Program-made: the position numbers and the translations under genes | Shown: piece by piece, positions 1 to 36,408 of the stretch | How the letters are laid out: each line of letters starts with the position of its first letter | Numbering within the stretch: position 1 is the stretch's first letter | Source: Dictyostelium discoideum | Taxonomy: Eukaryota | Assembly: GCA_000004695.1 (NCBI GenBank) | Contig: CM000150.2 | Location: 3,616,001 to 3,680,000 of the forward strand | DNA length: 64,000 nt | Direction: 5' to 3' | The notes under the pieces: generated by a model | The model's input: only the letters and a program-made list of their open reading frames with translations | What the model was told of the DNA's origin: nothing | Databases searched by the model: none

Positions 1-146
1 TTTTTATTACGACATACTCGTAATTTTCTATAAAAAAATTTTGATAAAAATCTTACTATTATTTTTTTTTTTTTTTTTTTTTTTAAAAATAAAAGAGAAT
101 TAATTGTTTATGAAAAATTACGTTGTAAAAAAAAAAAAAAAAAAAA

Positions 147-3100
147 ATGGTAAAATTTAAAATAGTGATATCATTTTTATTATTTATTATATATTGTAAT
201 TGTTTCACATTTGGTAGCTACCCATTTGATACAAAAAATTGGTCAACAAATGGTACACTATCATCATGTGTTTTTTATGATTTTGTAAATAACGATTATT
301 ATGATTTAAGTTCTATTATCATACCTGATCATCAAGGTTCTCATAGAGCAAGTTTTGATGCAGAACTTTCTGGTGGAATTCAAACATCTTATTTAATGTA
401 TTTCAATCCTTGTTTTAATGATCATATGTGTCCAGGTGGTCTTTCAGTAGGTTGTATTGCTATTTTTCAAAATTCGCAAACAATATATAATTCTGTTGGT
501 TCACTTTCAGAACCACATTTTGTTACATATAGAACAAACGGTATTACTATTAAATATCAATCAACTCTTTTACCATCAACAACATGTGCCTCTAATGGTA
601 ACCGTAGAACTTTGATTTTAGTTATTACTTGTGATCCAATTCAACAATTTTCAGTAACAAGTACTAATAACAGAAGAGTATTATGTGAACATACAATTAA
701 TATCGCTTCAAGACTAGTATGTAAAAATAAAGGAGTATTATTTAATCAAGGTCTATTTTATGATTTAACACCAATGAAATTGTAAGTTATTAAATTCTTT
801 TTCATATTTTTAATTATCCATTTTTTTATTTTTATTTTTTATTTTTATTTTTATTTTTATTTCCCACTTTTTTCAATTCATTTTTTTTAATTTTTTTTTT
901 TTTTTTTAATTTTTTTTTTTTCCAATAGATTAACAAGCACTTCACACCAAATCACCAATGATGACCAAACAAAAGATATTCTCTTTAATTTATTCGGAAA
1001 TGTAAATAGATGTGGTACTTTCGGTACATCAACATTAAGTTATCAATCATGTATTTTAACAGTTGCTAATAAAGCGATCATTATAAACTAGATTCAAGAT
1101 ATGCAACATCACCAAAATCAGTTATGGTAGGATCTCTCAGTCAACCAAGAACAATTACATTTACAAATGATGTAATAACTATACTTTATAGTTCAACAAC
1201 TGGTTTCACAGAATGCTCATTAAACGGTAACAAATATTCATCAAAGTATATTTTAATTTGTGATCCATTCACAGAATATTATGTAGATAAATTTACATTA
1301 GAATCACAATGTATTTATCAAATAAAAGTTTATACCAAATACGCATGTCCAACATTACGTTTATTCAAACGACAAATACAATATTATGACCTTTCACCAT
1401 TGATGTTGTAAGTATTAAATTTAGTTTTTTAATATTTTATTTATCGTGCCCCTCCTCTAAATAATTAACAATTCGGTAAATCTATATATATAGAGATTCA
1501 ACAAGAAATTATACTGCAAGTTATAGTACAGGAGAAATTATATTTAATATTGGTAATAGAGCACAAATTTGTAACGAACCCTTGAATGGTACAATTTTTC
1601 ATTTTGCTTGTCAATACGATCCAATCAATAGAGTATACAATCAAATCGCTCAAGCAAGTTTAGGTCAAAAGGTAACATATGATTTAAATCAAATTAAATT
1701 TGAATACTCTTCAAGACTAACAACTAGTTGCTCATCAAATTCCAATAAAAGAAATTTTATTATTGTTTTAAATTGTGACGAAAATCAACATTACCAATTG
1801 GTTTCAACTATTGAATCTCCTGCATGTGTATATACAGTAACAATTAAAACTAAATATGTATGCGAATCAACAATTTATTTTAATGCATTTAACTATACCT
1901 ATTATGATATTACTCCAATAAAAACGTAAGTTTAAAGTAATAATAACTAGGTAATAATAGTAAAAATAATATTGATTTTTATTAACAAACACAATATATC
2001 AAACTATTAATTTTAATTAGAACAAAAGATAGTCCAAAAACAGTGGATATCACTGTCAGTGGAGTCACAAATAGAGTAAGAATTTAACTTTTAAAAAAAA
2101 AAACTAAAACTAAAACTAACATATTTATTTATTATTTTTTTAAATAGCTTTATTATGGTATAGGTAATACTGTTAACTTTTGTACAAATCAAGCTACAGC
2201 AGTTCCTGGTGTAGATTATCAAGCTTGCCAATATATCAATGGTGTTGTTATTCATGTTGGTAGTTTAAAAAATACTTCTATATATATTGGTGATAGTAAT
2301 GATATATATATCGCTCATACATCAGTAACTGATTCAACTAGACCACCATGTAGAGGTAAATATCAAAGGGCTGACATTTTAAGTATGACATGTGATCCAA
2401 CGGCTACATACACTTTTGTCAGTGCCAAAGAGGTTTCTTCTAACGGGGGATGTCATTATTATATTTACATTAAAACCAAATATGCATGCCCAATTAATTA
2501 TGCACCAGTATTGCCAGCTGTTGGAAATCCATGTTTATACAGTTGTACACCACCAGGTGCTTTAAATACAAAAGATATAGTTAGTGTACTTTTAAATTTA
2601 GGCGTTTGTTTTTCAGAGATTAATAAATATGGTACAGGTGCTCAATCATTACTTGGTATATTCAACAATACTTGGGTTTTAAACCACAATGGATATGATG
2701 ATTGGATGGGTGGACAACTTTATTCACTATTATTAACAGGTAAACCACAAACATCGATTTCACCATATGTTATTTCAATTACACATGATAATTTATGTAC
2801 ATATGGTACCAATGGGTTAAGTAAAGCAAAAAATTCAATCAATGATTTTCTCACTATCACAAATGATCTTCTTGAAATTTCAAATCGTGCAGCCAGTTCA
2901 ACCGTTACCAAATATACATATTCAGATGGAGCAATTACATTATCAACACATAAACTTTTATCAACATCAACTGGAGGTCTTGCAATTATTATGTATAAAG
3001 GCTTGCTATGCCATTACTCAGTGGTTTCAAATATTCAAACTTTAGTTATTTCGAATTATTTGCTTTCATGTCCATATTATTCACTACCAATTACATTGTA

Positions 3101-6100
3101 TAGTTTAGCACCATCAACTGCGAAAATCGGAGATACTATTACAATTAATGGTGAAAATCTAGATAAAGACAACTATGATGTTTATTTTAAAATCATTCAA
3201 GATTCATATTCTGAAGTCAAAGCAACAATAACATCAAGAACAGCAAATACTGTAAAAGTAATCGTTCCAAAAGGTTTTGGTGGTGCCTTTGTTCTCACTC
3301 AAAATAGAATCAATAAGTTAATCTCTAATAATCTTGAATTTTCATACCCATCATCAACCATTGTCAAAGTAATTAGTCAACCATTTAGTACAGGTATCAT
3401 CAATAGATTCTTTGTCATTGGTGAATATTATCGTTCATTAATAACCAATATCACCATTTATCCATACATCGATAATATTGAAAAAGAAGCAATTTATTGT
3501 GAAATTGAAAAGTATTGTCCAAGTTCATCAAAAATTCCATCAATTCCAGGATCAGAAGTAGGTCATCCATGTATTGATTCAACAGTTTACTCTGAGAATG
3601 CCCAGTTTTTCAATTATTCCAAGTATGATGTTTTTGTTTGTATCAAATCATCATTAGGTGTTGGAAGTGGTATCATTAAATTCCCATCACAAACATTTAC
3701 ATTCGCATACTCTTATAAAGCACCTCTCTTATATTATGCACCACCTGGCGCTCGTATTCCAACTGATGGTGGTAGTTTTCAATTGAGTGGCAAAAACTTT
3801 CCACCAACACAAGAAATCATTGATCTCGGTTTGAACACATCTAAAATCATTTGGAATAATGATAATTTTGTTACATTCAAAGGAACAAATCTTACAAATA
3901 CCAACATCAATTGGAAGAGTTCAGATACGATTGTATTTATTGCGCCACCAGGTTTTGGTGAGTGGATCACCGTTTCAGTAACTGTCGGTAAACAAGCGTC
4001 AACAACTACATACCCAGGTGATTTAGATGAACGTCCAACTGGAAATTATACTTTGCATTATCTATTTCCAACAATTGTTGATTTATCAGCAGTTCCAACT
4101 GATGGTGGTGAAACTATAATAAAAGGTGCCAACTTTATTCCAGCTATCTTTGTAGGTCAAATTAATAATCAATCATTAATTGGTTCGCTACATTCAGTCA
4201 CGTTTAATAATGTTTTATCTCCATCATGGACATGGATTAACTCAACACACGTAAAAGCCATCGTACAAAAAGGTATTGGTACAATCTCTCCAATGGTAAG
4301 AGTTGGTGGTCAAAGATCAGATTTGTACCAACTTTTTGCAACATTATACAAAAAACCTGAATTAGATAATAAAAAATATGAAAACTTTGCAAATAGTAAT
4401 ATTTTAATAACTGGCTCTAATTTTGTACCAGTTGGTGTTTCAGCAGGTTCATCAAGTTCTGTTAAAATTGGAGGTATTCCTTGTAACTCTGTAACATGGG
4501 TAGATTCAAAATCTGTTATTTGTAATGTACCAATTGGAACTGGTGATAATTTAAATATCCAAGTAACAGTTGGAGATCAACAAACCGAATTAAATGATTA
4601 TTTCTCATATTTAGGGCAATGCGATTTCCTCTGTAGCGATTTATCAAATTTAGTAAGTTTTTAAACATTTTAATTACAGAGAAAAAAAGAAAAAAAAAAC
4701 TAAAAAATACTAATATATTATCATTTTTACCTCAAAGGAATTAGAAAAAGTTATTAGAGAGAATAAAAAAGATTTAAAGAGTACTCTTTTATTAACAGGC
4801 GTATGTTTAGAACAAATCAAGCAATATAATCTTACATATATTAAAAATAAAATTGAATCAAGTTGGATTGGAAATTCAATTATTAATGATTGGACAAGTG
4901 GTAAATTCTATAACTATTTCAAATCATCAGAATCATACTCAACAGTTAAAACACTTGCAAAATATATTACTCCAAAGAATCCATGTATTTATGATAATAA
5001 AAGAGTAAAGAATTCATTAGATTACCTTTTCGAAATCAATTCAGATATTTTCCATTTAATTGAACTTTCAATTTCATCAAAAATCAGTTATCCAGATTCG
5101 CCATATCAAACTTATTTCTATAAATCATCAAGTAACCCACAGTATGGTCTTTCAATTATTACATTTGATTCAGCAATTTGTAGCTTTACAGAATCAACTA
5201 TTCAAGACTACCAAAGTGGAAAAGTATTACAATCATGTTCAATCATTCCAATTATAAATCAAGTAATTAATCCAACAACAACACTTCAAGCACCATATCA
5301 ATATTCACTTACAATTATTGGTAGATTATTTGATAGTTCAACTAGAATATTTTTATCAGGTTATGAATGTCCAATCATTGGTAATATTGTTACAAATCAA
5401 AATGATTATATTCAAACTCTTAGTTGTTCAGTACCATCAGAAATCAAATCATACTCAGCCTCTCCAATTAGTTTTTACAATGGTTATAGTGAAAATAATA
5501 TATATAATTTCTTGTTGGATTTTAAAAAATCATTCTTTTTTATATATCCAATTTCAACAGTAACTCAAATTCAATACCCATCAAGTGGTCCAATTCAAAT
5601 GAATTCTGAAATTAAAGTAATTGGTTTTAATTTCTTCCCATATGGTATTACAAATCCAAACCTTAAAGTTTTTATTGATGATCTTGAATTAACTGATACT
5701 ATCTTTGGATTAACAAGCATAAATGGAGTTGATTCATTTTCATTTATTGCTTCTGGTTTAGGTTCTTTAAAGTATGTAAAAAAAAAAAAAATTAAAAAAA
5801 AAATTAAATTAAATTATTAATATATAAATTTCTTTTTAAAAGTTACATTCAATTATTTTATAGTAATAGTTTACCAATGATTATAAAAAATGGTGTTAAA
5901 TTAGAATTTTCATTTGAAAGACCAATTATTAATAGTATATTACCAACAAATGGAGATTACAATACAAAAGTTACAATTAATGGTAATAATTTTAGAAAAG
6001 GTCAATCAGTAAAAATTGGAGACTTATTAGTAAATGATATTGAATTCATTTCAAATCAAAAGATTATTGTTTCAGCACCATTTGGATTTATTAATGGACT

Positions 6101-9100
6101 TGTAGTTGTTTATTCAGATGATCAATACAGTTTAGAAGAAATATCATTTAGTTATCCTTCACCAATTATAGACCAAGTCATTCTTTCAAATTATGAATCA
6201 AAATTAAACACAACAGGTACAAATTATTTCACAGTAATAGGTAGAGGTTTAGGTACATACATTGCAGAACAAGTCGATATTATTATTAACCAAGAGTTTT
6301 ATGCAAGTTGCGAATTCGATTTCTGTGAAAGTTTAGAAATTATTGAAGATATAGATATAAAAGATCAAGGAATTTGTCAATATTTAAAATATAAAAATTA
6401 TCAATATATCAATGAAAACTTTGATATATTAAATTGTATTTTAGCTGATTCAATTGGTAAAGATAAATCAATCAGTATCAAAATTTCAGAATTCCAAAAC
6501 CAAACTTTCACCTACTCTTATTATGAACCATGGATTGAAAAACTAACACAAAACTCTTCATCAGCAACAACTGATGGTGGTGAAGTAATCGTTATAAATG
6601 GTTACAACTTTTTACCATTCGAAAATTTAAGTCCATACTATGAAAACAATGAAACTATTGCACAATGGTTAAATCAATCAGAAATATTAATTGGTGAAAG
6701 CTATCTTTGTCAATCAATTAATTGGACCAATTCCTATGAATTAAATTGTACAATCCCACCGGGAATTGGTGTTAATCATACAATCATTGTAAAAGTAGGC
6801 CTTCAATCATCAAATCATACTGATTATTTGTATTCTTACAATCCACCAAAACTTGATACAATCAATAATTCCACCAAAAATGAGACACATTACTATTCTT
6901 CAACAGATGGTAACAATGAAATTATAATAACAGGTAATAACTTTATTCCAAAAGAGTTATCAGATCATTACAACCAGAATGAAAATAAAACTATAAATTC
7001 AATACTATTAGGTAAACAATATTGTAATGAAACTATTTGGATTAATTCAACAATAGTTAAATGTAAACCATTAGCAGGTATTGGGTCAAATTACAAAATA
7101 ATCATTAAAGTTGGCAATCAAAATTCAAACGAAACCGTTTACTTCTCATATGAGAAGCCAATTTTAGATTTAAAGAATTACACAGGTTCAACAAATGGTA
7201 ATACTGAAATTACAATAACAGGTATCAACTTTATTCCAAAACAATTAGCAGATAATAATAATTTCAATCAATCAGAGAACTATATAATGATTGGTGATAA
7301 TAAATGTAATGGAATTATTTGGATCAATTCAAGAACAGTTAAATGTAAACCAATATCAGGTACTGGTACCAATCATAGAGTTATCATAACAGTTGGTAAT
7401 CAAAACTCAAATGAAACGGTCTACTTTTCATATGATAAACCAATTTTAGATATTAAAAACTATAGTAGTCCAACTGATGGCAATACTGAAATCACAATAA
7501 CAGGTGAAAACTTTATCCAAAACTATAATCAAGAAAAACATAATGAAAATGATAATTTCGTTAGAATCGGTGAAAATAAATGTAATGAAACAAAGTGGAT
7601 AAATTCGACAACAATTAAATGTAAAATAATTCAAGGTATTGGTTTAGATTATAAAATAGTTGTAACAGTCGCCAATCAACAATCAAATGAAAATGTTTTC
7701 TTTTCATATGAAAAACCAATGATTGACAGTAAAACACTATTAGCATCAACCAGTGGCAGTGAAACTATTAAAATTACAGGTACCAATTTCATTCCATCAA
7801 TTTTAGTAGAACATTACAACAATATAAAAAATAAAAATAACTCAATAAATTCAGTTACTATCAATAACGAGTTTTGTAATGATATTGCATGGATTAACTC
7901 AACAGAACTAACATGTAAACCATTAGCAGGAGTTGGAACTAATCATACCATATTCATTTTAGTTGGAACTCAAAAATCAAATCAAGTAAAATCATTCTCA
8001 TATAAACCTCCAAAGATTGAAGAGTTTAAATACTACACAGCACCAACACATTCCAATAAAATTATTACTATAACTGGTGAAAACTTTATTCCAATCGAAT
8101 TATTATCAAAAGACAACAGCAATAGTTCAGTACTTATTGATAATATAAAATGTGAAGAAATCAAATGGATTGATTCTACAAAAGTTTCATGTCAAGTTCC
8201 AGTAGGTCAAGGTAAAGATTTATCGATTAAAGTTAAAATTGAAAATCAAGAAACTGAAGAAAATCAACAATTTTCATATGATAAACCATTTATTCAATCA
8301 ATCAATCCAAATAAAGGAAGATGTAATCAAGAAGTATTAATTACAATTCAAGGTGATAGTTTTGGAAAGAGTGATCAACTAATTAAAATTGGTAATAACG
8401 AATGTCAAGATATTCAATTCTATCCAAATCATACATTTACATGTAAAGTTCCAATCGTGGAGAATTCAATTAAATCCATTGTTTTATTAAATGTTGGAAA
8501 TCAAGATTCAAACGATAACATTACATATAAATACTATGGACCACCAGAAATTAAAAGTATTGGTTTACCATCATATCTTTCATTCAAAGGTGATGATTTA
8601 ATAACAATCATTGGTAATAACTTTATAGAATATGATGATGGATCTGATGAAATTGTTGTTAAATTTAATAATGAACCAACAGCTATCATTGAAAAAACAG
8701 AAACATCTATTAAAATTAAAACTCTTAGTGGTGATGAATTTAATTTACCAATTGCTGTAGAATTAAATGGTCAAATAAGTAATATCGATACTTCATTCGT
8801 TTACTCAAATCCAATAATTGAAAGTGTAACACCATCATCAAGTAGCTCAAAATCAAATACTCATATCATCATTAAAGGACATAATCTTGGATACTTAACA
8901 AACACTCCCAAAATTACAATTGGAAGTAGCAATTGTTTAAATATCAATACTATATCTCCAAATGAAGTTCGTTGTATAGTGTTGAAATCAAGCGCAGGCG
9001 CCAAACAATTAACATTAACCTATAAAAGTTATCAACCAACCTATTCACAATTCACTCATGATGATGACAGTGATAGCCACGATGACAGTGGAAGCCATGA

Positions 9101-10352
9101 TCATAATGATCCTAATGGACCAAAAGATACTATAATAGGTATTATCGGAAGTGCAATTGGAGTATCAGTATCAGGAGTCTTGGCTGGATTAATACCAACT
9201 ATTTTCGGTAATGGAACATCAGTAGCCACTACGGCCGCAACAACAAGGGCGGTAGATACAGCGGTAGCGGCAGCAACTACAGCAGCAACAGCAACAGCCA
9301 TTGCCAGTGCAACGATCGAAGGTGTTGCTGTAGTCGTTACAAGGGTATCAGTAATAGCAGCAACAGCAGGTGGTGTTATCGTTACTGCAATTGTAACAGC
9401 AACAGCCATTCTTATTTCAGGTGGAAGTACACCATCACCAACCCCAACCATAACTCCAACCATAACTCCAACCATAACTCCAACTATTTCACCAACTCCA
9501 ACACCAACCGATAACTATTGGGTAAGATGTATGGTCGATTATTCAAGATTAGCTTTACAAGTCGATAATCTTTACGGTCAAGATATAGTATGTATTGATG
9601 GTAATGGAATTTCATCAATTTTCAACGAATCATTCTCTTGTAAACCTGATCTTATTAACGATGGTATGATATGTGCTCAACAACATCAAGATGGAACAAA
9701 TTCAACAACCACATTTGGTAATTCAACATTAATTTGTCATATTGACCCAACAAAATCATGTGAAATTTCACCACCATTCATCATACCATCCGATCCAATT
9801 GAAGATGATGAATATTCAAATATTTTAGAATGTCAATATAATCTCATTGAAAATTCATTATCAACACACTCTAATAATAGTCCATTAAGATGTTATAATA
9901 ATGAAACTGAAAATTACTTCATTATGAATACTACACTTTCATGCTCAAAAGATGAATCATTAAGTCAAGATAAAGATACGATTTCTTGTTTATCAGATAC
10001 AGATGATACTCAAATCTTTTTCTTTAAGAACTCAATTACATGCATTACAGATTATCCATACTATAAATGTACAATGAAATCTCAATCATCACCAGATGAT
10101 AACATAATTCCAGAACCAACATTACCACCAACTCCATCAATTGATGATGATTCCACATGTATTTATGATTCAGCCAATCCATATTCAATAGATCTCCAAC
10201 CAACAACTGGAACTAATGTCAAATGTCCAACAAATGAAAAAGAACTTCATTATGATCTTTCAACTTATCTAACATGCACGGATAATATCACCCATAAAAA
10301 CTCCACCTATTCAATTTCTTACTCAACTTATGTTTGTATTAAAACTAAATAA
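147..10352 (+). CDS. Giant multi-exon gene: signal peptide, 3 N-terminal Cys modules (each ends ..CDP...K(T)KYxCP), about 20 IPT/TIG repeats, GC-rich Ala/Thr/Val-rich hydrophobic segment, (PT)n linker, C-terminal Cys-rich domain (tgr-like IPT/TIG family protein, about 3100 aa)
   Basis: ATG at 147 with a hydrophobic N-terminus (MVKFKIVISFLLFIIYCNCFTFG). Proposed exons: 147-781, 929-1407, 1494-1925, 2021-2075, 2148-4652, 4738-5771, 5864-10352. Donors are GTAAGT at 782, 1408, 1926 and 4653, GTAAGA at 2076, and GTATGT at 5772. Acceptors are T-rich ..AG. Phases are consistent across every junction except inside exon 2. Exon 7 carries the repeated motif ..ITGxNFIP..CNxxxWINSTxxKCKxxxGxGxNxxIxVxVGNQxSNExxxFSY.KP, typical of IPT/TIG domains. 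The stop codon TAA is at 10350-10352. Confidence 0.75.
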
Positions 10353-10495: not shown

Positions 10496-10700
10496 TTACA
10501 TATAATGATTCAGATGCTGAACCAGTTTATTCCTCACCAGTGCATTTGCCGAATTGAGCAAGAGAGTTACACTTGGCACGATGTAAATAAACTTACGAGC
10601 AGCTTCAACGTTGGCAGATTCACCTTTCCAAGTGAAGGGTACGAACGTTGAATTCACCGTTCGTACCAATTGTTCAGAGGTGAGCAAATTTGGAATTCAT
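10496..10700. ncRNA. Candidate structured small RNA: about 200-bp GC-rich island in poly(A/T) intergenic DNA, with a perfect 10-bp stem
   Basis: Local GC is much higher than the flanks. A perfect hairpin GGTACGAACG (10638-10647) / CGTTCGTACC (10658-10667) encloses a 10-nt loop. The only long ORF (minus, 10496-10687) is not ATG-initiated, its nearby AAAATG is out of frame, and it uses rare codons (CGA, ACG, CCC, TCG, CTG). Confidence 0.25.
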
Positions 10701-15590: not shown

Positions 15591-17444
15591 ATGAATATAA
15601 TAAAATCAAATAAAAAGATTAAAAAGAATAAAATTAATAATGAAAATTTAGATAATAGTAAATTATTTTTTAAAGTATGGAGAAATTCATATATAAGATA
15701 TCAAATTTTTCAACATTTAAGATTATATAATATTCATAAGAATCAAATATCATTAACAAATGAACAATTAGAAGAATATAAATATTTAAATTATTGTAGA
15801 TCAATTTATTTAGTTGGTGATAAAATTGATAGTTCATTTTTAAAGGATAAATTACCAGATAGTGTTGAATGTTTATCATTTGTTTATTATTTCAACCAAC
15901 CGATATTAAATAGAATCGATTTCAATTACAATTCAAATTATCATTGTAATTTGAAATCGATAACCTTTGGATACGACTTTAATCAAGAAATTAAAGAGAC
16001 TGCACTACCAAGATCATTAGAGTCTTTAAAATTTGGTAGATTATTCAATCAGGAGTTGACCGAAACTACATTTAAAAATCAAATTAATTTAAAATCAATA
16101 GAATTTGGTGCAAAGTTTAATAATAAAGGTAAACCAATAAAGGTTGGAGTATTTCCAAAATCCATTGAATCTTTAAAGTTTGGTTTTCATTTTAATTCAT
16201 TCTTTGATGCGCATTCATTACCTAATGGTTTAAAATTAATTGAATTGGGTTCAAATTATTATCAAGATTTAAATCAAGAGGATATATTACCACGTTCACT
16301 TACAAGTCTATCATTATCAAATGAATATAAAATTCCAATCACTTTAAAAACAATTAAATCATTACCAAACTTAATGCATTTAGATTATCCAGGTTTCATT
16401 TTACCATTTGGTTCGAATGATGAAGTTTTACCATCTTTAAAATCACTTCGTAGTTTTATTGAATGGAATGATGATGATGATGATGGTGATGTTGGTGATG
16501 GTGGTGGTGGTGGTGGTGGTGGTAGTAGTAACTCAAAATTACCAAGTTCTTTAAATAAATTAACAATATGTGGTACAAATAAAATTTTTAAAAATATTTC
16601 AATACCAATTGGTTTAAAGGAAATTTATATTAAATCCTTATTAACATTTGATTCATTTCATAATGGTAAAGATAATGGTGATGTTGACATTTCAGATTTA
16701 CAGTTAGAGAAAATGACAATTGATATTCAAAGAGTGTTTGCAGAAGATATAAAACTTGGTTTACCAAAATTCTCAATACCAACATTTAAAAAATTGGAAA
16801 TTCTTTATTTAAATAGTGAATTCACTCAAGATATCTTTCCATCCACTATTACTTCATTAACATTGGATACCTATAATATGGTTTTTAATTCATACTCTCT
16901 ACCTAAATCATTAAAACATTTGAAATTACCAAATTATAATCAACCATTCACCAATATTGATTCATTTCCATGGAGAACTTTAGAGGAATTAGAATTTGGT
17001 ATGCCATTTTTTCAATCATTCCCACCATCGATATCTTTTAAAAATTTAAAATCTTTAACTATTGGTATTGATTGTTTTATGTCATTCTCAAAAAATTCAA
17101 CCGTTGATACTTTGTTCCCAGTTTTAGAATCAATTGTTTTTATAATTCCTCAAGAACTTAAATATATAATTTCAACCGATTGTTTCTTCCAATTATTACC
17201 TATTTCTATAAAGCATTTAAAACTTGGAAAGTATGGATTCGATAAACCATTCAATGATGAATCAATCATTTGGCCACCTAAATTAACAACTATTTCAATA
17301 CCTAACAGAATAATTCATTTAATTTTTGACAAAAACTTTTCATTACCACATCAATTAAAAAGTTTAGTTTGTGACAGGCTATCTGCTGTTGATGAATTTT
17401 ATTTTAAAATTATAAAAGTTTGTCCAGAAATAAAATTTTATTAA
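15591..17444 (+). CDS. FNIP-repeat-containing protein
   Basis: ATG at 15591, single exon. The 617-aa product carries many tandem repeats of ..LxSLxFGxxFNQxIxxxxLPxSLxxLxFG.., the Dictyostelium FNIP repeat. Confidence 0.8.
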   Translation: MNIIKSNKKIKKNKINNENLDNSKLFFKVWRNSYIRYQIFQHLRLYNIHKNQISLTNEQLEEYKYLNYCRSIYLVGDKIDSSFLKDKLPDSVECLSFVYYFNQPILNRIDFNYNSNYHCNLKSITFGYDFNQEIKETALPRSLESLKFGRLFNQELTETTFKNQINLKSIEFGAKFNNKGKPIKVGVFPKSIESLKFGFHFNSFFDAHSLPNGLKLIELGSNYYQDLNQEDILPRSLTSLSLSNEYKIPITLKTIKSLPNLMHLDYPGFILPFGSNDEVLPSLKSLRSFIEWNDDDDDGDVGDGGGGGGGGSSNSKLPSSLNKLTICGTNKIFKNISIPIGLKEIYIKSLLTFDSFHNGKDNGDVDISDLQLEKMTIDIQRVFAEDIKLGLPKFSIPTFKKLEILYLNSEFTQDIFPSTITSLTLDTYNMVFNSYSLPKSLKHLKLPNYNQPFTNIDSFPWRTLEELEFGMPFFQSFPPSISFKNLKSLTIGIDCFMSFSKNSTVDTLFPVLESIVFIIPQELKYIISTDCFFQLLPISIKHLKLGKYGFDKPFNDESIIWPPKLTTISIPNRIIHLIFDKNFSLPHQLKSLVCDRLSAVDEFYFKIIKVCPEIKFY

Positions 17445-23053: not shown

Positions 23054-25360
23054 CTATGACCTTTTGTTCGAATTTTGGCTCTGGTTGCTTTCATCAGTGT
23101 TGAACAATTTGTGACAGATTATCTTCCATAATTGGTGTGCTATTATTCCTATGAGATTGGGGAAGATTCTCTCAGTTCTGTTGTATTTTGATATGTCTAA
23201 GGTATCCATTGACCATCTGTGGATTTTGATGAATGATAATTTGTTAACTGTTGATATGATGGTTTTTTCAATATCTAGGATATCTTGGCATAGAGTGAAG
23301 AGGTGAGAATAAGGGTCTCTGAATAGGTGGCCACAGATCTTGCATCTGGTGTCTCTTTCGTGGTTGATACCTGGAAGTGATCTTGAGAAGAATCTGAAGA
23401 GGGTGTTTCTACCTTTTTGGTGAGAAATGCTGTTGATGTTTATGAATACTTTGGGTATTGCTGTGTTGTATCTCACCGCCCATAACTTCTGCCATTCTGT
23501 TCTTCTTGGTGTTGGGTGTCTGTCTTTGATCATGAGTTCGTAAATTTCTTTCAGTTTTAGTGGTTCATCATTGTCGTTTCTTATACAGTCTGGAAGTTCA
23601 TTTATCTTTGGATGGTTTTGGTAAAATTTGACTCTGAATACACCCCAGTGTCTGCACATATCGTTGAGGGTTGAAGTGTGGGCTTTTTTTCTACTTAATT
23701 GCTCCATGTACCATTCTTGTAAGGTATTGTTGTTGTTGTTGTAGTTGTTATGGAGTAGCCTGTTCATGTACCAGATTTTGAATGCTATATGTCTTAGTTC
23801 TATATCCCATAATTTTATGCCTCCTTCTTTCCAATCTGCATATGCTCTGTCTATTTTCATCATAGTTTTGTATTTTCTCTCTTCTGTATATGTATTCTTA
23901 ACTGAGGAGAATAAGAACCATCTGGTCATGTTATTGATTTCCTCAATTTGTTCTTCATTTAGATTATCCATGTATTGATGGTATGTTAATTTGGATAGAA
24001 CGTATGTTTTGAGAATTGTCATCTTTGCCTTCATCGTTATTGCTTGTGATTTCCATTTGATTAGATTGTTTTTCATTTCTTGGATTAAAGTGTTGTATTT
24101 TGAATTTAAACCTGTTTTGGTGAAATTGAGGCCAAGATATCTTTCTGGGACTGTAATCTCTTGGAATGGTAGATCGTGTGGTTTATCTCCTATTGCTATC
24201 ATTACTGTTTTCTCTTTGTTTAACGATGATGATGTTGCTGAGCAGTACTTTTGGATTTTAGTATTAATTTTCATTAGTTCTTCTGTGGAGTTTGTAAAGG
24301 TTGCTATGTCGTCAGCAAATGCAGTGAGTTTTCATGATTTGGAATTTGGTAGAGTGAAGCCTTTGATTGTATTATCATTGATGATATCTATTAGAAGTGG
24401 TTCTAAAACTAGAGCAAAGATTGTTGGTGATATTGGGTCTCCTTGTTTTGTTCCTCTTCTGATTGTTATTCCATTGACTAAAAAGTCGTTGATCTTTATT
24501 TTGTTTTTAGTATCTTTGAGTAGGTTTAGTAGGATCGCTGTGAATTTTGGGGGGATACCAATATGCTCTAATGTTCTTGTGATACTCTTGTGGCTGATTG
24601 AATCGAATGCTTTGTTAAAATCGTAAAAGGTAATGAGTGTATTGTTCTTTCTTTTGTTACTTATTTCTATTACTTCCTTCATGATCTGAATATTGTCTTG
24701 GATGAACCTGTTTGGAACAAAGCCTTTTTGAAATTTGTTGATAATTTTACTGGTGATATCTAATAATCTACTGTTGAGAATTTTGCTTAAAATTTTGTAA
24801 TCTGTATTGAGAAGGGTGATTGGTCTTCTATTTGAAATGTTTAGTTCATCTCCTTTTTTGAATATTGTTGTTATTACTCCTTCTTTGAATTTTGTGGGGA
24901 TTTCTTTCTTATTTGTGAGGAGGTCGTTGAAAGCTATAGTCAATATTCTTGCTATTGAGTTGATGTGGTACTTGTAGAATAGTGCATTGATACCGTCTAA
25001 ACCTGGAGATTTGTGGATACTTGAAGTTTTGATTGCTTTGGTCACTTCATGTATTCTCATCGGTCTGTCTATCTCGAGTTTCTTGATTAAATCAACGTCT
25101 ACTTCCCATTTTTCTAATAACTTCTTGTGGGTTTCTTCGTTATCTTCTTTCTCTTCATAGAATTCAACAAATCTTTTTGCTATGTTCTCTTTATCTGATA
25201 TGGTCTTATTATCTTTATCTTTTATTTGGAATATTGATTTATCTTTGGCTCTGGATTTAAGGATACTTGTGAGGTATTTGCTTGGTGTTTCTTGATGCAG
25301 GTGGAGTTTTAATTTGATATCCCATGCTTTTACCTTTTTAAAAAAAAAAACTCCAATCAT
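23054..25360 (-). pseudogene. Retroelement ORF2 reverse-transcriptase region, 5'-truncated and frameshifted between 24274 and 24332
   Basis: Two adjacent minus-strand ORFs (24332-25360 and 23054-24274) lie in different frames. The first has RT motifs (FYDFNKAFD; QGDPISP). The second has a CKICGH..C zinc-finger-like tail. Confidence 0.65.
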
Positions 25361-25463
25361 TCCTAAAAATATTTTATTTTATATTTAGAAAGGAATGATT
25401 GGAGTTTTCCAATCATTTCTAAAAATATTTTATTTTATATTTAGAAAGGAATGATTGGAGTTT
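25349..25463. repeat. Tandem palindromic hairpin units (GGAAAACTCCAATCATTCC ... GGAATGATTGGAGTTTTCC) inside the retroelement cluster
   Basis: Two units of about 55 bp with 19-nt inverted arms around an AT loop. One isolated arm is also present at 22681-22699, next to T19. Confidence 0.7.
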
Positions 25464-25467
25464 TCCA

Positions 25468-25510
<43 letters not shown>

Positions 25511-25733
25511 TGGATTAACAAGATTGATATATGTCCATCTGTGTTAATACGAGTTTTTATTTAATATTTATTTATAGGCTTATCATTTAAGCTGAAGGGT
25601 TATTTTAATCATATGAATTGATCTAAAAGATATAATATTTGGGAGAGATGATTCTGGAATACAATAGTAATTAGCTGTTGTTTTTCTTAGCTTGATCGTT
25701 GAGGTGAGAAGGATCTTAGGATCTTTGAAGTTA

Positions 25734-26549
25734 TTATGGTCTTTTGCTGATAGAGTTATGGTTGGATGACAGCTCCCTTGAATAATCGTTAAGTAGGAAG
25801 TCTATTTTCTTAAGCATTATGCTTGAGAGGATTGAGGATTTTTTTAATCTCCATCTGCGCTTGTTCATCTGTATGTTGGGTAGAGTGAAAGTGGTTGATA
25901 GGAAGTTGTGATCTGATAGAGGTATGTCGTTAATTTTTGGGGGGATTAGGTTCCTTAAGTATAATTGGCTGTAGTTGATTAAGCTATTGTTAAGGTATAT
26001 TCTGTCTAGTCTCCTTTCCAAGATTCTTGTGAGGTAATGTATCGTTCTTGAGAAGGTGGGTCTTTTATTTAGTTGGTCCATATCCATTAGGTTATTTGAA
26101 ATTCTGATGGCTTCGATTACTGTGGCCATCTCATCTGGGGATTGTGTTGTCAAGTTGCCTTGGTCATCACTTGATGTGTGATTGTCATTGAAGTCTAAAC
26201 AGTTGAAGTCGCCTGCTATGATGTCGATGTTTTTATTAGGGTTAGACGTAAGGTTGTGGTATTGGTTGTTGAAGTGTTTGTTTAGTGTTGAAGCTAGTGT
26301 TTTTCTTTTATCAGGTTGGGCCGGGGCGTATATGGCCAAGATTCTCGTTGTGGTATCTTTTATTAGAATGTCTGATATTATTAGTCTACCTTCTATTATG
26401 AATATTGGTGAGAGTTTTATGTTTTGGTTGTTGTGGTTTAGTATTCCTATTCCGTTGCCTCTGTTGGTTGCGCTAATGATGGAGCCAGAGAATAGCTGGT
26501 GTGCTTGTGTTGCGTCGGCGTTGAGTTCATTGACTATGGTTAGTGCCAA
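25734..26549 (-). CDS. Retroelement ORF2 N-terminal apurinic/apyrimidinic-endonuclease-like domain, truncated
   Basis: A 271-aa ORF with a GDFN motif typical of the APE domain of non-LTR elements. It ends in a stop, followed by a UTR-like sequence and A40. Confidence 0.6.
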   Translation of the reverse strand: MALTIVNELNADATQAHQLFSGSIISATNRGNGIGILNHNNQNIKLSPIFIIEGRLIISDILIKDTTTRILAIYAPAQPDKRKTLASTLNKHFNNQYHNLTSNPNKNIDIIAGDFNCLDFNDNHTSSDDQGNLTTQSPDEMATVIEAIRISNNLMDMDQLNKRPTFSRTIHYLTRILERRLDRIYLNNSLINYSQLYLRNLIPPKINDIPLSDHNFLSTTFTLPNIQMNKRRWRLKKSSILSSIMLKKIDFLLNDYSRELSSNHNSISKRP

Positions 26550-26653
26550 TGAGTTTGGGGGGGATTGGGATTTGATAAAGTCTGTTTTGTTTTTGAAGGA
26601 GGTGTCAGTGCCCCAACCTCTGACATTCCATTGGTTGATTTTGATTACTACTA

Positions 26654-27904
26654 TTATGAGATGATATCGATCTCCTCTTGGGAGTCGTATAGCTGCGGTT
26701 TGGATGGTGAAGGGTAGATACTCCCTATGAAGCTCTCAATGATTCCTTTCCTTTCTTTTTTGACAGGTGTCTTAGGGGTGGATGGGATGTAAGGGTTGCT
26801 TCTGTTTATTGTTGGTGAGAGTTGGTTGACTTCATTGTTTGAGTGGATTTCCTCGTTCTTGCGTTTATGTGATGGAGGGATGTTTAGTGTCTTCTCTCTG
26901 TTTTCCGAGGATGAATGGGTGTTAGTGCTCGTTTTGTTGGCATTGTCTTTTTGGATGGCGTTGGATGTTGTGGTAGTGGTTGTGGTGGGTTTGACAGATT
27001 GAGATTCTGCTGGGTTTTTGCGGGGAAGAGGTAGAGATGACTTTTTTGCTTGGGCTTTTTTCTCTTGGGTTGATTGTTTATCAGACTGATTGTTTGCTGG
27101 GTTGTTTGTTTGTTGTTGTGGTTTTGGTTGAGAGGATTTGATTGCTATCCTGTTTTGGGTGTTAGGAGGATCTGTCATCTCATCTTCTAATGGTTCCTCC
27201 GTGTTGTTTGTCTCTACTTTCTTGTTTTTCTTTTGTGAGGAGTAGGTTTTGGTGGCCGTTCTGATGGTAAAGTTTGCGATTTCTGTAATGTGTTGGCCAG
27301 ATTTCATTTGATCGCCTATTTTGCATTCTATTAGACCGAATACTATGAGGTGGTCGGTGGAGTATATAGTATTGTATATTGCATAGGGTATTTCTTCTGC
27401 AAAGGCAGTTTTGATGATGGCGTCCACTATTCCTGCCTTTTCTCTGGGAATTCTTACTCTTCTTGTGAGGACGTGGAAGTCTCTACTGGAGGTGATGAAG
27501 GTTCCCAATTTGCTTCTATCTCTAATGATATTTATGAGAGATTGTTCGTTTTTAATCATCAGGTGGATCGTTTTTCTAGTTCCTTTGCCTATGTATATCT
27601 TGTCGATTGGGATATCGTAGTTTGAGAGTGTTTTTCTCATTTCTTCTAACCCCTTGAGATCCATTTTGGGGAATTCGAGTGTAATTGGGTAGAATCCGTT
27701 GTTCTTCTCGTAGGTTGAGAGCGCAGTCATGTTCAATATGGTCTCGCAGTATTTGGAGATGTCTTTGAGGCCTATTGATAGTTTGGGGTAGGTCTCCTTT
27801 ATCTCTGCTGTTTTTGTGGAGAATTCCTTAATGAAGTTCTCCGATGCCTCGTCCATATGGGTGGAGGGGTTGGCCATTTTAGCCGCGTCTGCGTAGGAAT
27901 TCAT
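26654..27904 (-). CDS. Retroelement ORF1 (TRE-like)
   Basis: A 416-aa ORF starting at ATG 27904, directly upstream of the endonuclease/RT ORFs on the same strand. It has a Ser/Thr/Pro/Gln-rich C-terminal half. Confidence 0.6.
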   Translation of the reverse strand: MNSYADAAKMANPSTHMDEASENFIKEFSTKTAEIKETYPKLSIGLKDISKYCETILNMTALSTYEKNNGFYPITLEFPKMDLKGLEEMRKTLSNYDIPIDKIYIGKGTRKTIHLMIKNEQSLINIIRDRSKLGTFITSSRDFHVLTRRVRIPREKAGIVDAIIKTAFAEEIPYAIYNTIYSTDHLIVFGLIECKIGDQMKSGQHITEIANFTIRTATKTYSSQKKNKKVETNNTEEPLEDEMTDPPNTQNRIAIKSSQPKPQQQTNNPANNQSDKQSTQEKKAQAKKSSLPLPRKNPAESQSVKPTTTTTTTSNAIQKDNANKTSTNTHSSSENREKTLNIPPSHKRKNEEIHSNNEVNQLSPTINRSNPYIPSTPKTPVKKERKGIIESFIGSIYPSPSKPQLYDSQEEIDIIS

Positions 27905-28180
27905 CTCGATGGGATTCCTTTGAATCGGCGATTTGTAAGTTAGATCTGTAGATCGTGGTGGATTGGTGATTTTTTTTGAAAGATTGGTTAAAATTGACCG
28001 AGATTAAGGATAGAAAAGGATGAATTACTTTTCACGTGTATCTTGTATCCTCTTGATCGCGGTACGGTTTTTTCACTTTCCAATAATAGTTGTATTAAAG
28101 GTTGGTGGTGTTTGAAATCCTGCAACTCGGACCCACTTAATTTAAGGAATTGAACCGGCGATCAATTGTTTCCAGTTATA

Positions 28181-28185
28181 AAAAA
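28181..28185 (-). terminator. Pol III oligo(T) terminator of tRNA-Thr
   Basis: TTTTT lies immediately 3' of the tRNA on the minus strand (plus-strand AAAAA at 28181-28185). Confidence 0.7.
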
Positions 28186-28256
28186 GGCTCCTATGAGGAT
28201 CGAACTCATGACCTCTTCCTTACTAGGGAAGCGCAATACCACTATGCTAAGGAGCC
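28185..28256 (-). tRNA. tRNA-Thr (anticodon AGU)
   Basis: The minus-strand sequence GGCTCCTTAGCATAGTGGTATTGCGCTTCCCTAGTAAGGAAGAGGTCATGAGTTCGATCCTCATAGGAGCC folds as a cloverleaf. The acceptor stem is a perfect 7 bp. The anticodon stem CTTCC/GGAAG closes a loop CUAGUAA, so the anticodon is AGU with U33 and A37. The T arm is ATGAG-TTCGATC-CTCAT. The variable loop is 5 nt. Confidence 0.85.
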
Positions 28257-33782: not shown

Positions 33783-36408
33783 ATGGCCGATTTAAACTCT
33801 GTTATTAGAATTAAACCATTTCATTTCATTCACGTAAGTTTATAAAAAAAAAAAACAATAAAAAAAAAAGTAATCATTATTAATTTATTTTTTAATTTTT
33901 TATTTTTTTTATATAAATTAATTTTAGGTATTAGATAATAATACAAATGTTACTAGAGTTGAAGTTGGACCACAAACTTTTACAAGACAAGATCATGAAA
34001 AGTTAGTAAGTGGCCCAGAACCAATGATTATGATCCCACAACGTAACTATTGTACAATTTCAAATCCAGTAGTTCGTAATGAAAATGGTTCATTAGTATT
34101 GGATGAATATGGTCAAGTTAAATTAAGACATGGTGATGAAGAGATTCGTTTCTCACAAGAACCATTCCCATTATATCCAGGTGAAAAAATTTCAGGTAAA
34201 GTTACCGCTCTCCAAGTTGTTGCACCATTAAAGGCTTTACGTCTTCGTGCTCTCCGTGATTTCACTGAAGCTAAAGTCACTCATGTTGCTGGTGATGAAT
34301 GGTTATTTGAAGGTCCAGCAACCTATCTCCCACGTATTGATGTTAGAATTGAAGAAGAAATCAAAGCAACCATCATTGGACCAAATCAAGCACTCAAATT
34401 ACGTGCCAACAAAGCATGTTCCGATCGTTCAGGTGTTGCAAGAAAAGCTGGTGAAGAGTGGTTAGTTCGTCAACATGGTGCCTACCTCCCAGGTGTCGAT
34501 GAAAAAGTCGTTGAAATTGTAAATGCCTACGTCTTAACTGACAAGAAAGCACTCCACCTCAAAGCCACTAAAACCTTTTTAGATGAAACCAGAAAAACAC
34601 AACGTAAAGCTGGTGAGGAATGGTTAGTTGTTAGCACCGATGCTGAAACTCATATCCCAGATGTTTATGAACAAGTCGTTGGTGAAGTTCATATTACTAC
34701 CCTCTCAAATCGTCAATACTGTGTTGTTTTGGATCCAATTGGTGCCAATGGTAAACCACAACTTGGTCATAAACAATTAAGAAAGGGTGAACTCGCTTTC
34801 TTCTTAAACCCAGGTGAATCATTAGAAGGTAACAAAATTCACAATATCTACGTTTTAACCGAACAAGAAGCACTCTTACTCCGTGCTAAAGAAACCTTTT
34901 CCATTGATGGTGAATCTCATTTAGCTGGTGATCGTTGGATGATCTATGGTCCATGTGATTATGTTCCACCAGTTCAAGTTGAAGTCGTTGAAAAACGTGA
35001 ATCCATTCCATTGGATGAAAATGAAGGTATCTACGTTCGTGATATTAAAACCGGTAAAGTTGCATCAATCAAAGGTCAATCATACATGTTAAAAGCAAAT
35101 GAAGAACTTTGGGAAAAAGTTTTACCACGTACTGTCGAAGAAGTTCTTGCCAAAGAATCACTCAACCCAGAATTCACTGATAATCGTGATTCAACTCGTG
35201 TTGTTACCTATCGTGCTCCACACAATAGTGCTGTTCAAATCTATGATTACAAAGAAAAGAAATCACGTGTTGTCTTTGGTCCAGATCTTGTTATGTTAGG
35301 TCCAGATGAACATTTCACCGTTCTCTCTTTATCTGGTGATAAACCAAAACGTCCACATCAAATCAAAGCTATCGCTCTCTTTTTAGGTCCAGATTTCATG
35401 ACTGATGTTGTCATTGTCGAAACTTCTGATCATGCTCGTCTCTCCCTTAAATTATCATACAATTGGGAATTCAAAGTTGATCGTTCCAAGATTGAAGATG
35501 CTCAAAAGATCTTCCAAGTACCAGATTTTGTTGGTGACTCATGTAAAGCTATTGCCTCAAGAGTTAGAGGTGCTGTTGCTGCAGTCTCTTTTGATGATTT
35601 CCACAAACGTTCCGCTGAAGTCATCCGTCAATCCGTTTTTGGTTTAGATGAATCTGGTGAAGTCCGTAAGAACTTCTCTTTCAATTCAAACAACCTTGTC
35701 ATCACCAACATTGATATTCAATCTGTTGAACCAGTCGATCAACGTACTCGTGATTCACTCCAAAAATCTGTCCAATTGGCCATTGAAATCACCACCAAAT
35801 CACAAGAAGCTGCTGCTCGTCATGAAGCTGAACGTCTTGAACAAGGTGCTCGTGGTAGACTCGAACGTCAAAAGATTCACGATGAAGCTCAAGCAGAGTT
35901 AGCTCGTAAAGATTTATTACAACTCCAAGCTCAATCAGCTGCAGTCGAGTCAACTGGTCAAGCTACCGCTGAAGCTCAAGCTACTGCTGAAGCTGCTAAC
36001 ATTGCTGCTGAAGCCAATGTTAAACAAGCTGAATTAAAAGCTCAAGCCACCAAGATTCGTTCAGAATCTGAAATTTCTCTCTTAAAAGCCAAGAGAGAAA
36101 ATGAACTCTCATACCAAAAATCAATTGATGAACTCGAACTCACCAAACAATCTGATCTCGCTGAAATTGAAGCCTCCAAATTCAAAGCAATCGTTGAATC
36201 CATTGGTAGAGATACCCTCAAATCAATTGCTTGTGCTGGTAATGAAATGCAAGCTAAATTATTACAAGGTTTGGGTCTTAAATCATTTATGATCACCGAC
36301 GGTAAATCACCACTCAACCTTTTCGATACTGCCAACGGTATCATTGGTAATAACAATCAAATGGTAAACATGTCAAATGCTGCCAAACAATCTGGTAGAA
36401 GAAATTAA
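33783..36408 (+). CDS. mvpA: Major vault protein (843 aa)
   Basis: Exon 1 is 33783-33833 ([17 protein letters not shown], donor GTAAGT). Exon 2 is 33928-36408. The product aligns along its whole length with vertebrate MVP: [33 protein letters not shown]; [11 protein letters not shown]; the vault repeats; the shoulder region; the C-terminal coiled coil. The 843-aa length fits the alpha paralog, but choosing alpha over beta is a recollection, not something I verified. Confidence 0.9.

Follow-up and report, generated by a model that had tools for sequence, protein, structure and literature searches.

A one-nucleotide frameshift in exon 2 of a long MRH/IPT-TIG gene of Dictyostelium discoideum AX4, most likely a young null allele of the laboratory lineage

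The tgr (Tiger) family of Dictyostelium discoideum AX4 counts 38 genes and 26 pseudogenes (PMC12745789) and is defined by the presence of TIG repeats together with tblastx similarity to the AX4 genes tgrA-T (PMC12745789). A birth-and-death pattern of the TIG-repeat surface genes has been reported in the genus (PMC12745789). The gene described in this work resembles the tgr family in being a gene for an IPT/TIG-repeat surface protein with tandem and dispersed paralogs, in having copies whose truncation, splitting or duplication varies from isolate to isolate, and in its apparent inactivation by a simple indel. It differs in being about three times longer than the usual tgr model and in carrying four N-terminal MRH-like modules; unlike the heavily degraded copies, it has a single lesion and is under clear purifying selection.

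A second group of relatives is formed by the dictyostelid MRH/IPT-TIG proteins, which were found by a full HMMER scan and include the products of DDB_G0290815 plus DDB_G0290813 in AX4, DICPUDRAFT_77883 in D. purpureum and RB653_006925 in D. firmibasis. They share with the present gene the arrangement of MRH-like modules followed by TIG repeats, but are annotated as intact, whereas the AX4 copy in our window is frameshifted. In UniProt the homologs carry the label 'MRH domain-containing protein'. A third parallel, of a technical kind, is found in gene-predictor artefacts, where introns are invented over frameshifts. Two homologous protein models (P0002 and P0003) are of this type and a model of 3,195 amino acids in AX2 fits the same behaviour, but such artefacts bear on the annotation of the site elsewhere and not on its biology.

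The window, i.e. the whole stretch of DNA analysed, comprises 64,000 nt (contig CM000150.2, positions 3,616,001 to 3,680,000) with a GC content of about 0.16-0.32 and short, AT-rich introns. One of its ORFs, at 15591-17444 and neighbouring the gene under study, is an exact match to DDB_G0269802 of D. discoideum AX4 chromosome 1. The MRH/IPT-TIG gene opens the window and is composed of seven exons on the forward strand (147-10352), reaching from the ATG at 147 to the TAA at 10350-10352:

147-781, forward strand: exon 1, with the start codon, an N-terminus resembling a signal peptide, and cysteine module 1; phase 2 at its end, with a GTAAGT donor
929-1407, forward strand: exon 2, with cysteine module 2 (MRH-like); 479 nt in AX4, 480 or 477 nt in intact copies
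1494-1925, forward strand: exon 3, with cysteine module 3, which matches Pfam PRKCSH_1 (MRH-type)
2021-2075, forward strand: exon 4, a 55-nt mini-exon with the start of module 4; homolog P0001 reads TKDSPKTVDITVSGVTNR and then LYYGIGN
2148-4652, forward strand: exon 5, which completes module 4 and also holds a linker region and the first IPT/TIG domains
4738-5771, forward strand: exon 6, with no Pfam match
5864-10352, forward strand: exon 7, which carries 10 Pfam TIG stretches and hydrophobic membrane-spanning segments as well as a Pro/Thr linker and a C-terminal region rich in Cys; closed by the TAA stop

The six introns of the gene measure 72-147 nt and have a GC content of 0.08-0.22, against 0.26-0.36 in the exons. 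Their donors are GTAAGT in four cases, GTAAGA and GTATGT, and all acceptors are AG, that of intron 1 being located at 927-928. An alternative in-frame acceptor would start exon 7 at 5843 instead of 5864; the choice of 5864 follows the homologous protein P0012.

The predicted product contains four mutually related cysteine modules of about 145-165 residues each. Modules 1 to 3 occupy one exon each (exons 1, 2 and 3), the intervening introns having the same phase, and module 4 extends across exons 4-5. Module 3 is recognised by Pfam PRKCSH_1 with 26.3 bits (cut-off 23), and modules 1 and 2 are without a Pfam match. Pfam TIG (PF01833) scores above gathering in exon 5 (E = 4.7e-25, 87.8 bits, 4 stretches) and in exon 7 (E = 1.8e-112, 368 bits, 10 stretches), which gives about 14 IPT/TIG domains (at least 14 Pfam stretches). 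With a hydrophobic N-terminus resembling a signal peptide, the four MRH-like modules, the approximately 14 IPT/TIG domains and the membrane-spanning segments, the product is, by prediction, a type-I surface protein.

In AX4 exon 2 cannot be read in one frame. Entering from the phase 2 end of exon 1 at 781, the frame continues from 930 as LTSTSHQITNDDQTKDILFNLFGNVNRCGTFGTSTLSYQSCILTVANKAIIIN and terminates, with ...YQSCILTVANKAIIIN as its last residues, at the TAG at 1089-1091. The remainder of module 2 (...YKLDSRYATSPKSVMVGSLSQPRTITF...YDLSPLML) does not sit in this incoming frame but in the frame from 929, which reads SDHYKLDSRYATSPKSVMVGSLSQPRTITF...YDLSPLML and, after a TAA at 1070-1072, stays open from 1073 up to the donor at 1408. 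As both frames are open only across 1073-1088, the shift must fall inside this overlap of 16 nt. The phases of the flanking introns demand an exon length which is a multiple of three, and exon 2 has 479 nt where 480 are needed. The sites concerned are:

1073-1088, forward strand: overlap of the two open frames (930 incoming, 929 outgoing), 16 nt, sequence GCGATCATTATAAAC
1079-1080, forward strand: site of the missing nucleotide, ATC/ATTAT in AX4 against ATCGATTAT in three homologous DNA copies
1089-1091, forward strand: premature TAG, codon 266 of the unrepaired frame

The preliminary description had recognised an IPT/TIG gene whose exon 2 module is homologous to that of exon 3, and both assignments hold, the former by the Pfam TIG matches in exons 5 and 7 and the latter by comparison of the modules. 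It had further stated that the frame from the acceptor of exon 2 stops at the TAG at 1089-1091, that the rest of the module lies in another frame opening at 1073, and that the change takes place within about 30 nt. Translation reproduces the stop and the second frame, and the interval is now narrowed to 16 nt. A comparison with other strains, which had also been proposed, identified three homologous copies carrying a base absent from AX4, so that the shift is no chance resemblance.

In the DNA alignment with these three copies, which come from other D. discoideum assemblies, AX4 exon 2 has one gap only, corresponding to the loss of the G in ATC(G)ATTAT between 1079 and 1080; the deleted form is ATCATTAT, the intact form ATCGATTAT. 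The lost base is outside any homopolymer run and opens codon 263 (GAT to -AT), which is GAT for Asp in six homologous proteins and AAT for Asn in the paralog P0004. Restoring one base yields a coding sequence of 9,630 nt and 3,209 codons with the terminal stop only, and the deletion at 1079/1080 is therefore the only lesion in the gene. Unrepaired, the gene would encode 265 amino acids, which take in the signal peptide, module 1 and a third of module 2 and close with three out-of-frame residues (IIN).

Seven homologous proteins were available for the site: three from D. discoideum assemblies, the paralog P0004, the products of a tandem gene pair of a cryptic sister species (P0012 and P0160) and P0013 of D. 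firmibasis. The three D. discoideum proteins, from recent assemblies and found with the conceptually joined exons 1-3 as query, read ...CILTVANKAIDYKLDSRYATSPK... at the shift site, and the same straight-through reading is present in P0012, P0160 and P0013. All seven, D. firmibasis included, pass the site in one frame as KAI(D/N)Y(K/N)LDSRY. The single-frame arrangement is thus ancestral and the AX4 state derived, and the frameshift is due to an indel which is not a multiple of three (one base) as judged against three DNA copies and seven proteins.

Selection was estimated by the Nei-Gojobori method, comparing the repaired AX4 sequence with the intact ortholog ACTFIZ_008384, whose coding sequence was rebuilt from its locus (L005) on an identical seven-exon structure and yields the exact sequence of P0012. 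For the whole gene dN/dS is 0.36 at a dS of 0.185. In exon 2 it falls to 0.07 (17 synonymous and 5 non-synonymous differences), and in the part of exon 2 upstream of the shift to 0.03 (8 synonymous and 1 non-synonymous). No part of the gene is better conserved than the broken exon. After repair, no further stops or shifts were found in the 9.6 kb of coding sequence. The low dN/dS and the presence of only one lesion indicate that the break is either recent or else an error. An old pseudogene is ruled out by the single lesion in 9.6 kb and by the dN/dS of 0.36 overall and 0.07 in exon 2.

On this evidence we consider it probable that the AX4 copy was inactivated by a single-nucleotide deletion; the most likely case is that the allele is real, belongs to the NC4-derived laboratory lineage and is common to AX4 and AX2. 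Without the G at codon 263 of exon 2 (GAT to -AT), translation goes off frame after Ile262, adds Ile-Ile-Asn before the TAG at 1089-1091, and leaves about 2,940 downstream codons with neither an initiator nor a signal peptide. The expected outcome is a null allele, with either a truncated product of 265 amino acids or a decayed mRNA. The lesion appears to be young, because the rest of the 9.6-kb coding sequence is unbroken and the exon is under strong purifying selection.

The attribution to the laboratory lineage depends on a set of recent assemblies of AX2-214 and wild isolates, obtained with Nanopore plus Illumina sequencing (Holland et al., PNAS 2025, PMC12745789). One of these, ACTFIT, shows 99.89% identity to the window over 5588-27461 (21.9 kb) and is identical over 5588-10352; in the 21.9 kb the differences from AX4 are four substitutions and the varying length of long A or T runs. 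It is probably AX2-214. AX2 and AX4 are independent derivatives of NC4. The ACTFIT ortholog is annotated with 3,195 amino acids and ends at the same stop as the AX4 gene. In P0005 and P0012 the annotation pipeline took acceptors of the 4738 type and the 5864 type, and with these acceptors a gene with the G is expected to encode 3,209 amino acids, a gene with the deletion and the shortest GT-AG bypass (1051-1091, 41 nt) 3,195. Among the models which combine the deletion with a single change, the 41-nt bypass alone gives 3,195 amino acids. The same pipeline bridges frameshifts elsewhere, since P0002 and P0003 skip their own 1-nt deletions by means of a shifted acceptor or an extra intron.

The annotated length in ACTFIT hence matches the deletion plus a pseudo-intron of 41 nt, which argues, if indirectly, for a real mutation in the NC4 laboratory lineage. 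Judged from this length, AX2 has a good probability of carrying the deletion too, and the allele would then be genuine. Two candidate proteins of 3,195 amino acids, one with the deletion and the bypass and one with the G and the alternative acceptor of intron 5, had no exact match in the protein collection, which also lacks other long proteins of these assemblies, so that this result says little either way. No AX4 protein for the gene was found by word-indexed searches; these also missed the proteins of 3,195, 3,198 and 2,696 amino acids of other assemblies, and the missing AX4 protein is for this reason no evidence of annotation as a pseudogene. Exact look-up of the exon 1 ORF and of the 1,491 amino acid ORF of exon 7 retrieved no independent AX4 contigs, and no literature was found under the neighbouring DDB_G identifiers or the assembly accession.

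The main competitor of a genuine deletion is an error of sequencing or assembly in the AX4 reference, in which base calling or consensus building missed one G while the organism has ATCGATTAT and an intact, expressed gene of 3,209 codons. Several of the above data also fit this: 1079/1080 is the sole lesion in 9.6 kb of coding sequence, it falls in exon 2, where constraint is strongest (dN/dS 0.07), the full-length orthologs of other isolates (3,213, 3,198 and 3,199 amino acids) are intact, and a lone lesion in a constrained gene is also what a base-calling slip in a Sanger reference of 2005 would produce. However, the missing base is not part of a homopolymer run, all remaining indels between AX4 and AX2 in 21.9 kb are in long non-coding A or T runs, and the AX2-type assembly, which is independent and based on Nanopore plus Illumina, is annotated with 3,195 amino acids where 3,209 would be expected with the G. 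We therefore regard a reference error as rather unlikely. Of the three options offered by the preliminary description, a disabling mutation and a sequence error are both still live, now reduced to one nucleotide at 1079/1080, and the third, a cryptic acceptor at 1073/1074, is disfavoured by the exon-like GC content and the conservation of the segment it would remove and by the dN/dS of 0.03 upstream of the shift.

This third option is one of two forms of rescue by splicing. Intron 1 could extend to the AG at 1073-1074, at the cost of 49 module 2 residues. Alternatively, a GT-AG segment of 41 nt at 1051-1091 could be removed, at the cost of 14 residues. In both cases a slightly shortened but functional protein would be left. 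In silico both give open frames, of 3,160-3,167 amino acids for the junction 781 to 1075 and of 3,195-3,202 for the 41-nt bypass, and the latter has probably been adopted by the automatic annotation of the near-identical strain. Against this, the excised segments have the GC content of exons (0.27-0.30; 0.295 for 929-1074) and not the 0.08-0.22 of the six real introns, and the 41-nt segment is about half as long as the shortest real intron (72 nt) and has a poor donor, GTATTT. Both segments moreover code for sequence that is conserved in 7/7 homologous proteins, that of 929-1074 including two cysteines of the module, the segment upstream of the shift has a dN/dS of 0.03 (8 synonymous against 1 non-synonymous), and homologs with the G need no such splicing. 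The 41-nt micro-intron was rejected as a real feature on composition and size, and splicing rescue as a whole is judged very improbable. That the AX4/AX2 lineage still makes a functional protein by removal of the unusually short, exon-like 41-nt GT-AG segment or by use of the cryptic acceptor at 1073/1074 is very doubtful; if true, it would be a frameshift rescued by newly recruited splicing, with a new intron or splice site within a conserved coding exon.

Programmed -1 ribosomal frameshifting within 1073-1088 can be dismissed almost entirely: a -1 slip in the 16-nt overlap would give the full-length protein, but GCGATCATTATAAAC contains no X XXY YYZ slippery heptamer, and the 7/7 homologous proteins, one of them from another species, are in a single frame, the shift being derived and not conserved.

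As written in the AX4 reference, this 9.6-kb gene is untranslatable, and it will consequently be missing, split or mis-modelled in proteomes. Automatic pipelines mask the lesion by inventing an intron. A real deletion would make the standard laboratory strains AX4 and AX2 natural nulls for a giant MRH/IPT-TIG surface protein. In wild isolates the same protein is intact, with purifying selection acting on it, and, again if the deletion is real, this may be relevant to adhesion or recognition phenotypes differing between laboratory and wild strains. The finding itself is an ordinary one: in a fast-evolving family of surface proteins, one member has become a young null allele, unless, as is less likely, the reference is in error; it adds a further example to the fast birth-and-death of TIG-repeat surface genes in Dictyostelium and no new mechanism.

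The family is in rapid turnover, and copies of other strains are broken at other places, truncated or duplicated. A degraded paralog is present about 18 kb upstream in AX2. In the other assemblies the locus appears as follows:

ACTFIW (probably OT3A): syntenic ortholog of 3,213 amino acids
ACTFIR (probably CR116C): syntenic ortholog split into 380 and 2,696 amino acids and carrying a separate 1-nt deletion towards the end of exon 2
ACTFIY (cryptic species): reduced to a remnant of 748 amino acids at the syntenic position
ACTFIZ (cryptic sister species), locus L005 3001-16241: tandem copies of 3,198 and 3,199 amino acids, with 98.7% protein identity between them in exon 2

Independent 1-nt deletions are found in exon 2 of three of six copies, namely the AX4 gene (479 nt), an AX2 paralog (473 nt, locus L002 7052-7524) and the syntenic copy of the CR116C type (479 nt, locus L003 6803-7281). 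In a family that is decaying, three such cases could be due to chance; alternatively, the Nanopore assemblies could contain polishing errors.

Comparison of window positions 1-7535 with loci L001 and L003 showed that exons 1-3 of AX4 are 93.7% identical to an unplaced ACTFIR contig and 86.5% to the syntenic ACTFIR copy; downstream of exons 1-3, identity to the syntenic copy is 93.2%. This pattern suggests mosaicism or gene conversion between paralogs.

Every MRH/TIG copy inspected (upstream parts of L002, L003 and L005) is preceded by a divergent gene of the DNase II family of about 780-800 amino acids, and the duplicated unit seems to be the pair of a DNase II and an MRH/TIG gene. Homology search with this upstream neighbour returned distant paralogs only, the AX4 one being DDB_G0270848.

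Outside the window, the AX4 paralog DDB_G0290815/DDB_G0290813 is annotated as two adjacent genes of 1,544 and 901 amino acids, and its counterpart in the AX2-, CR116C- and OT3A-type assemblies is one gene of about 2,455 amino acids. This may be another split or frameshifted model of the AX4 reference.

Within the window a few other features were recorded. Just past the stop of the TIG gene, a GC-rich island at 10505-10695 interrupts the AT-rich spacer and contains a minus-strand ORF of 63 amino acids; it has no Pfam or Rfam match and is unannotated in the AX2-type assembly. A tRNA-Thr(AGT) gene at 28185-28256 on the minus strand adjoins a GC-rich block (0.31-0.41, with strong GC skew) within 23054-28256. 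The block carries four broken ORFs on the minus strand, of which 24332-25360 has a reverse-transcriptase domain, and looks like a tRNA-targeted non-LTR retroelement of the TRE type, itself frameshifted. Finally, a single ORF at 34024-36408 with a GC content of 0.40 codes for a major vault protein; both Vault repeats and the MVP shoulder domain are present.
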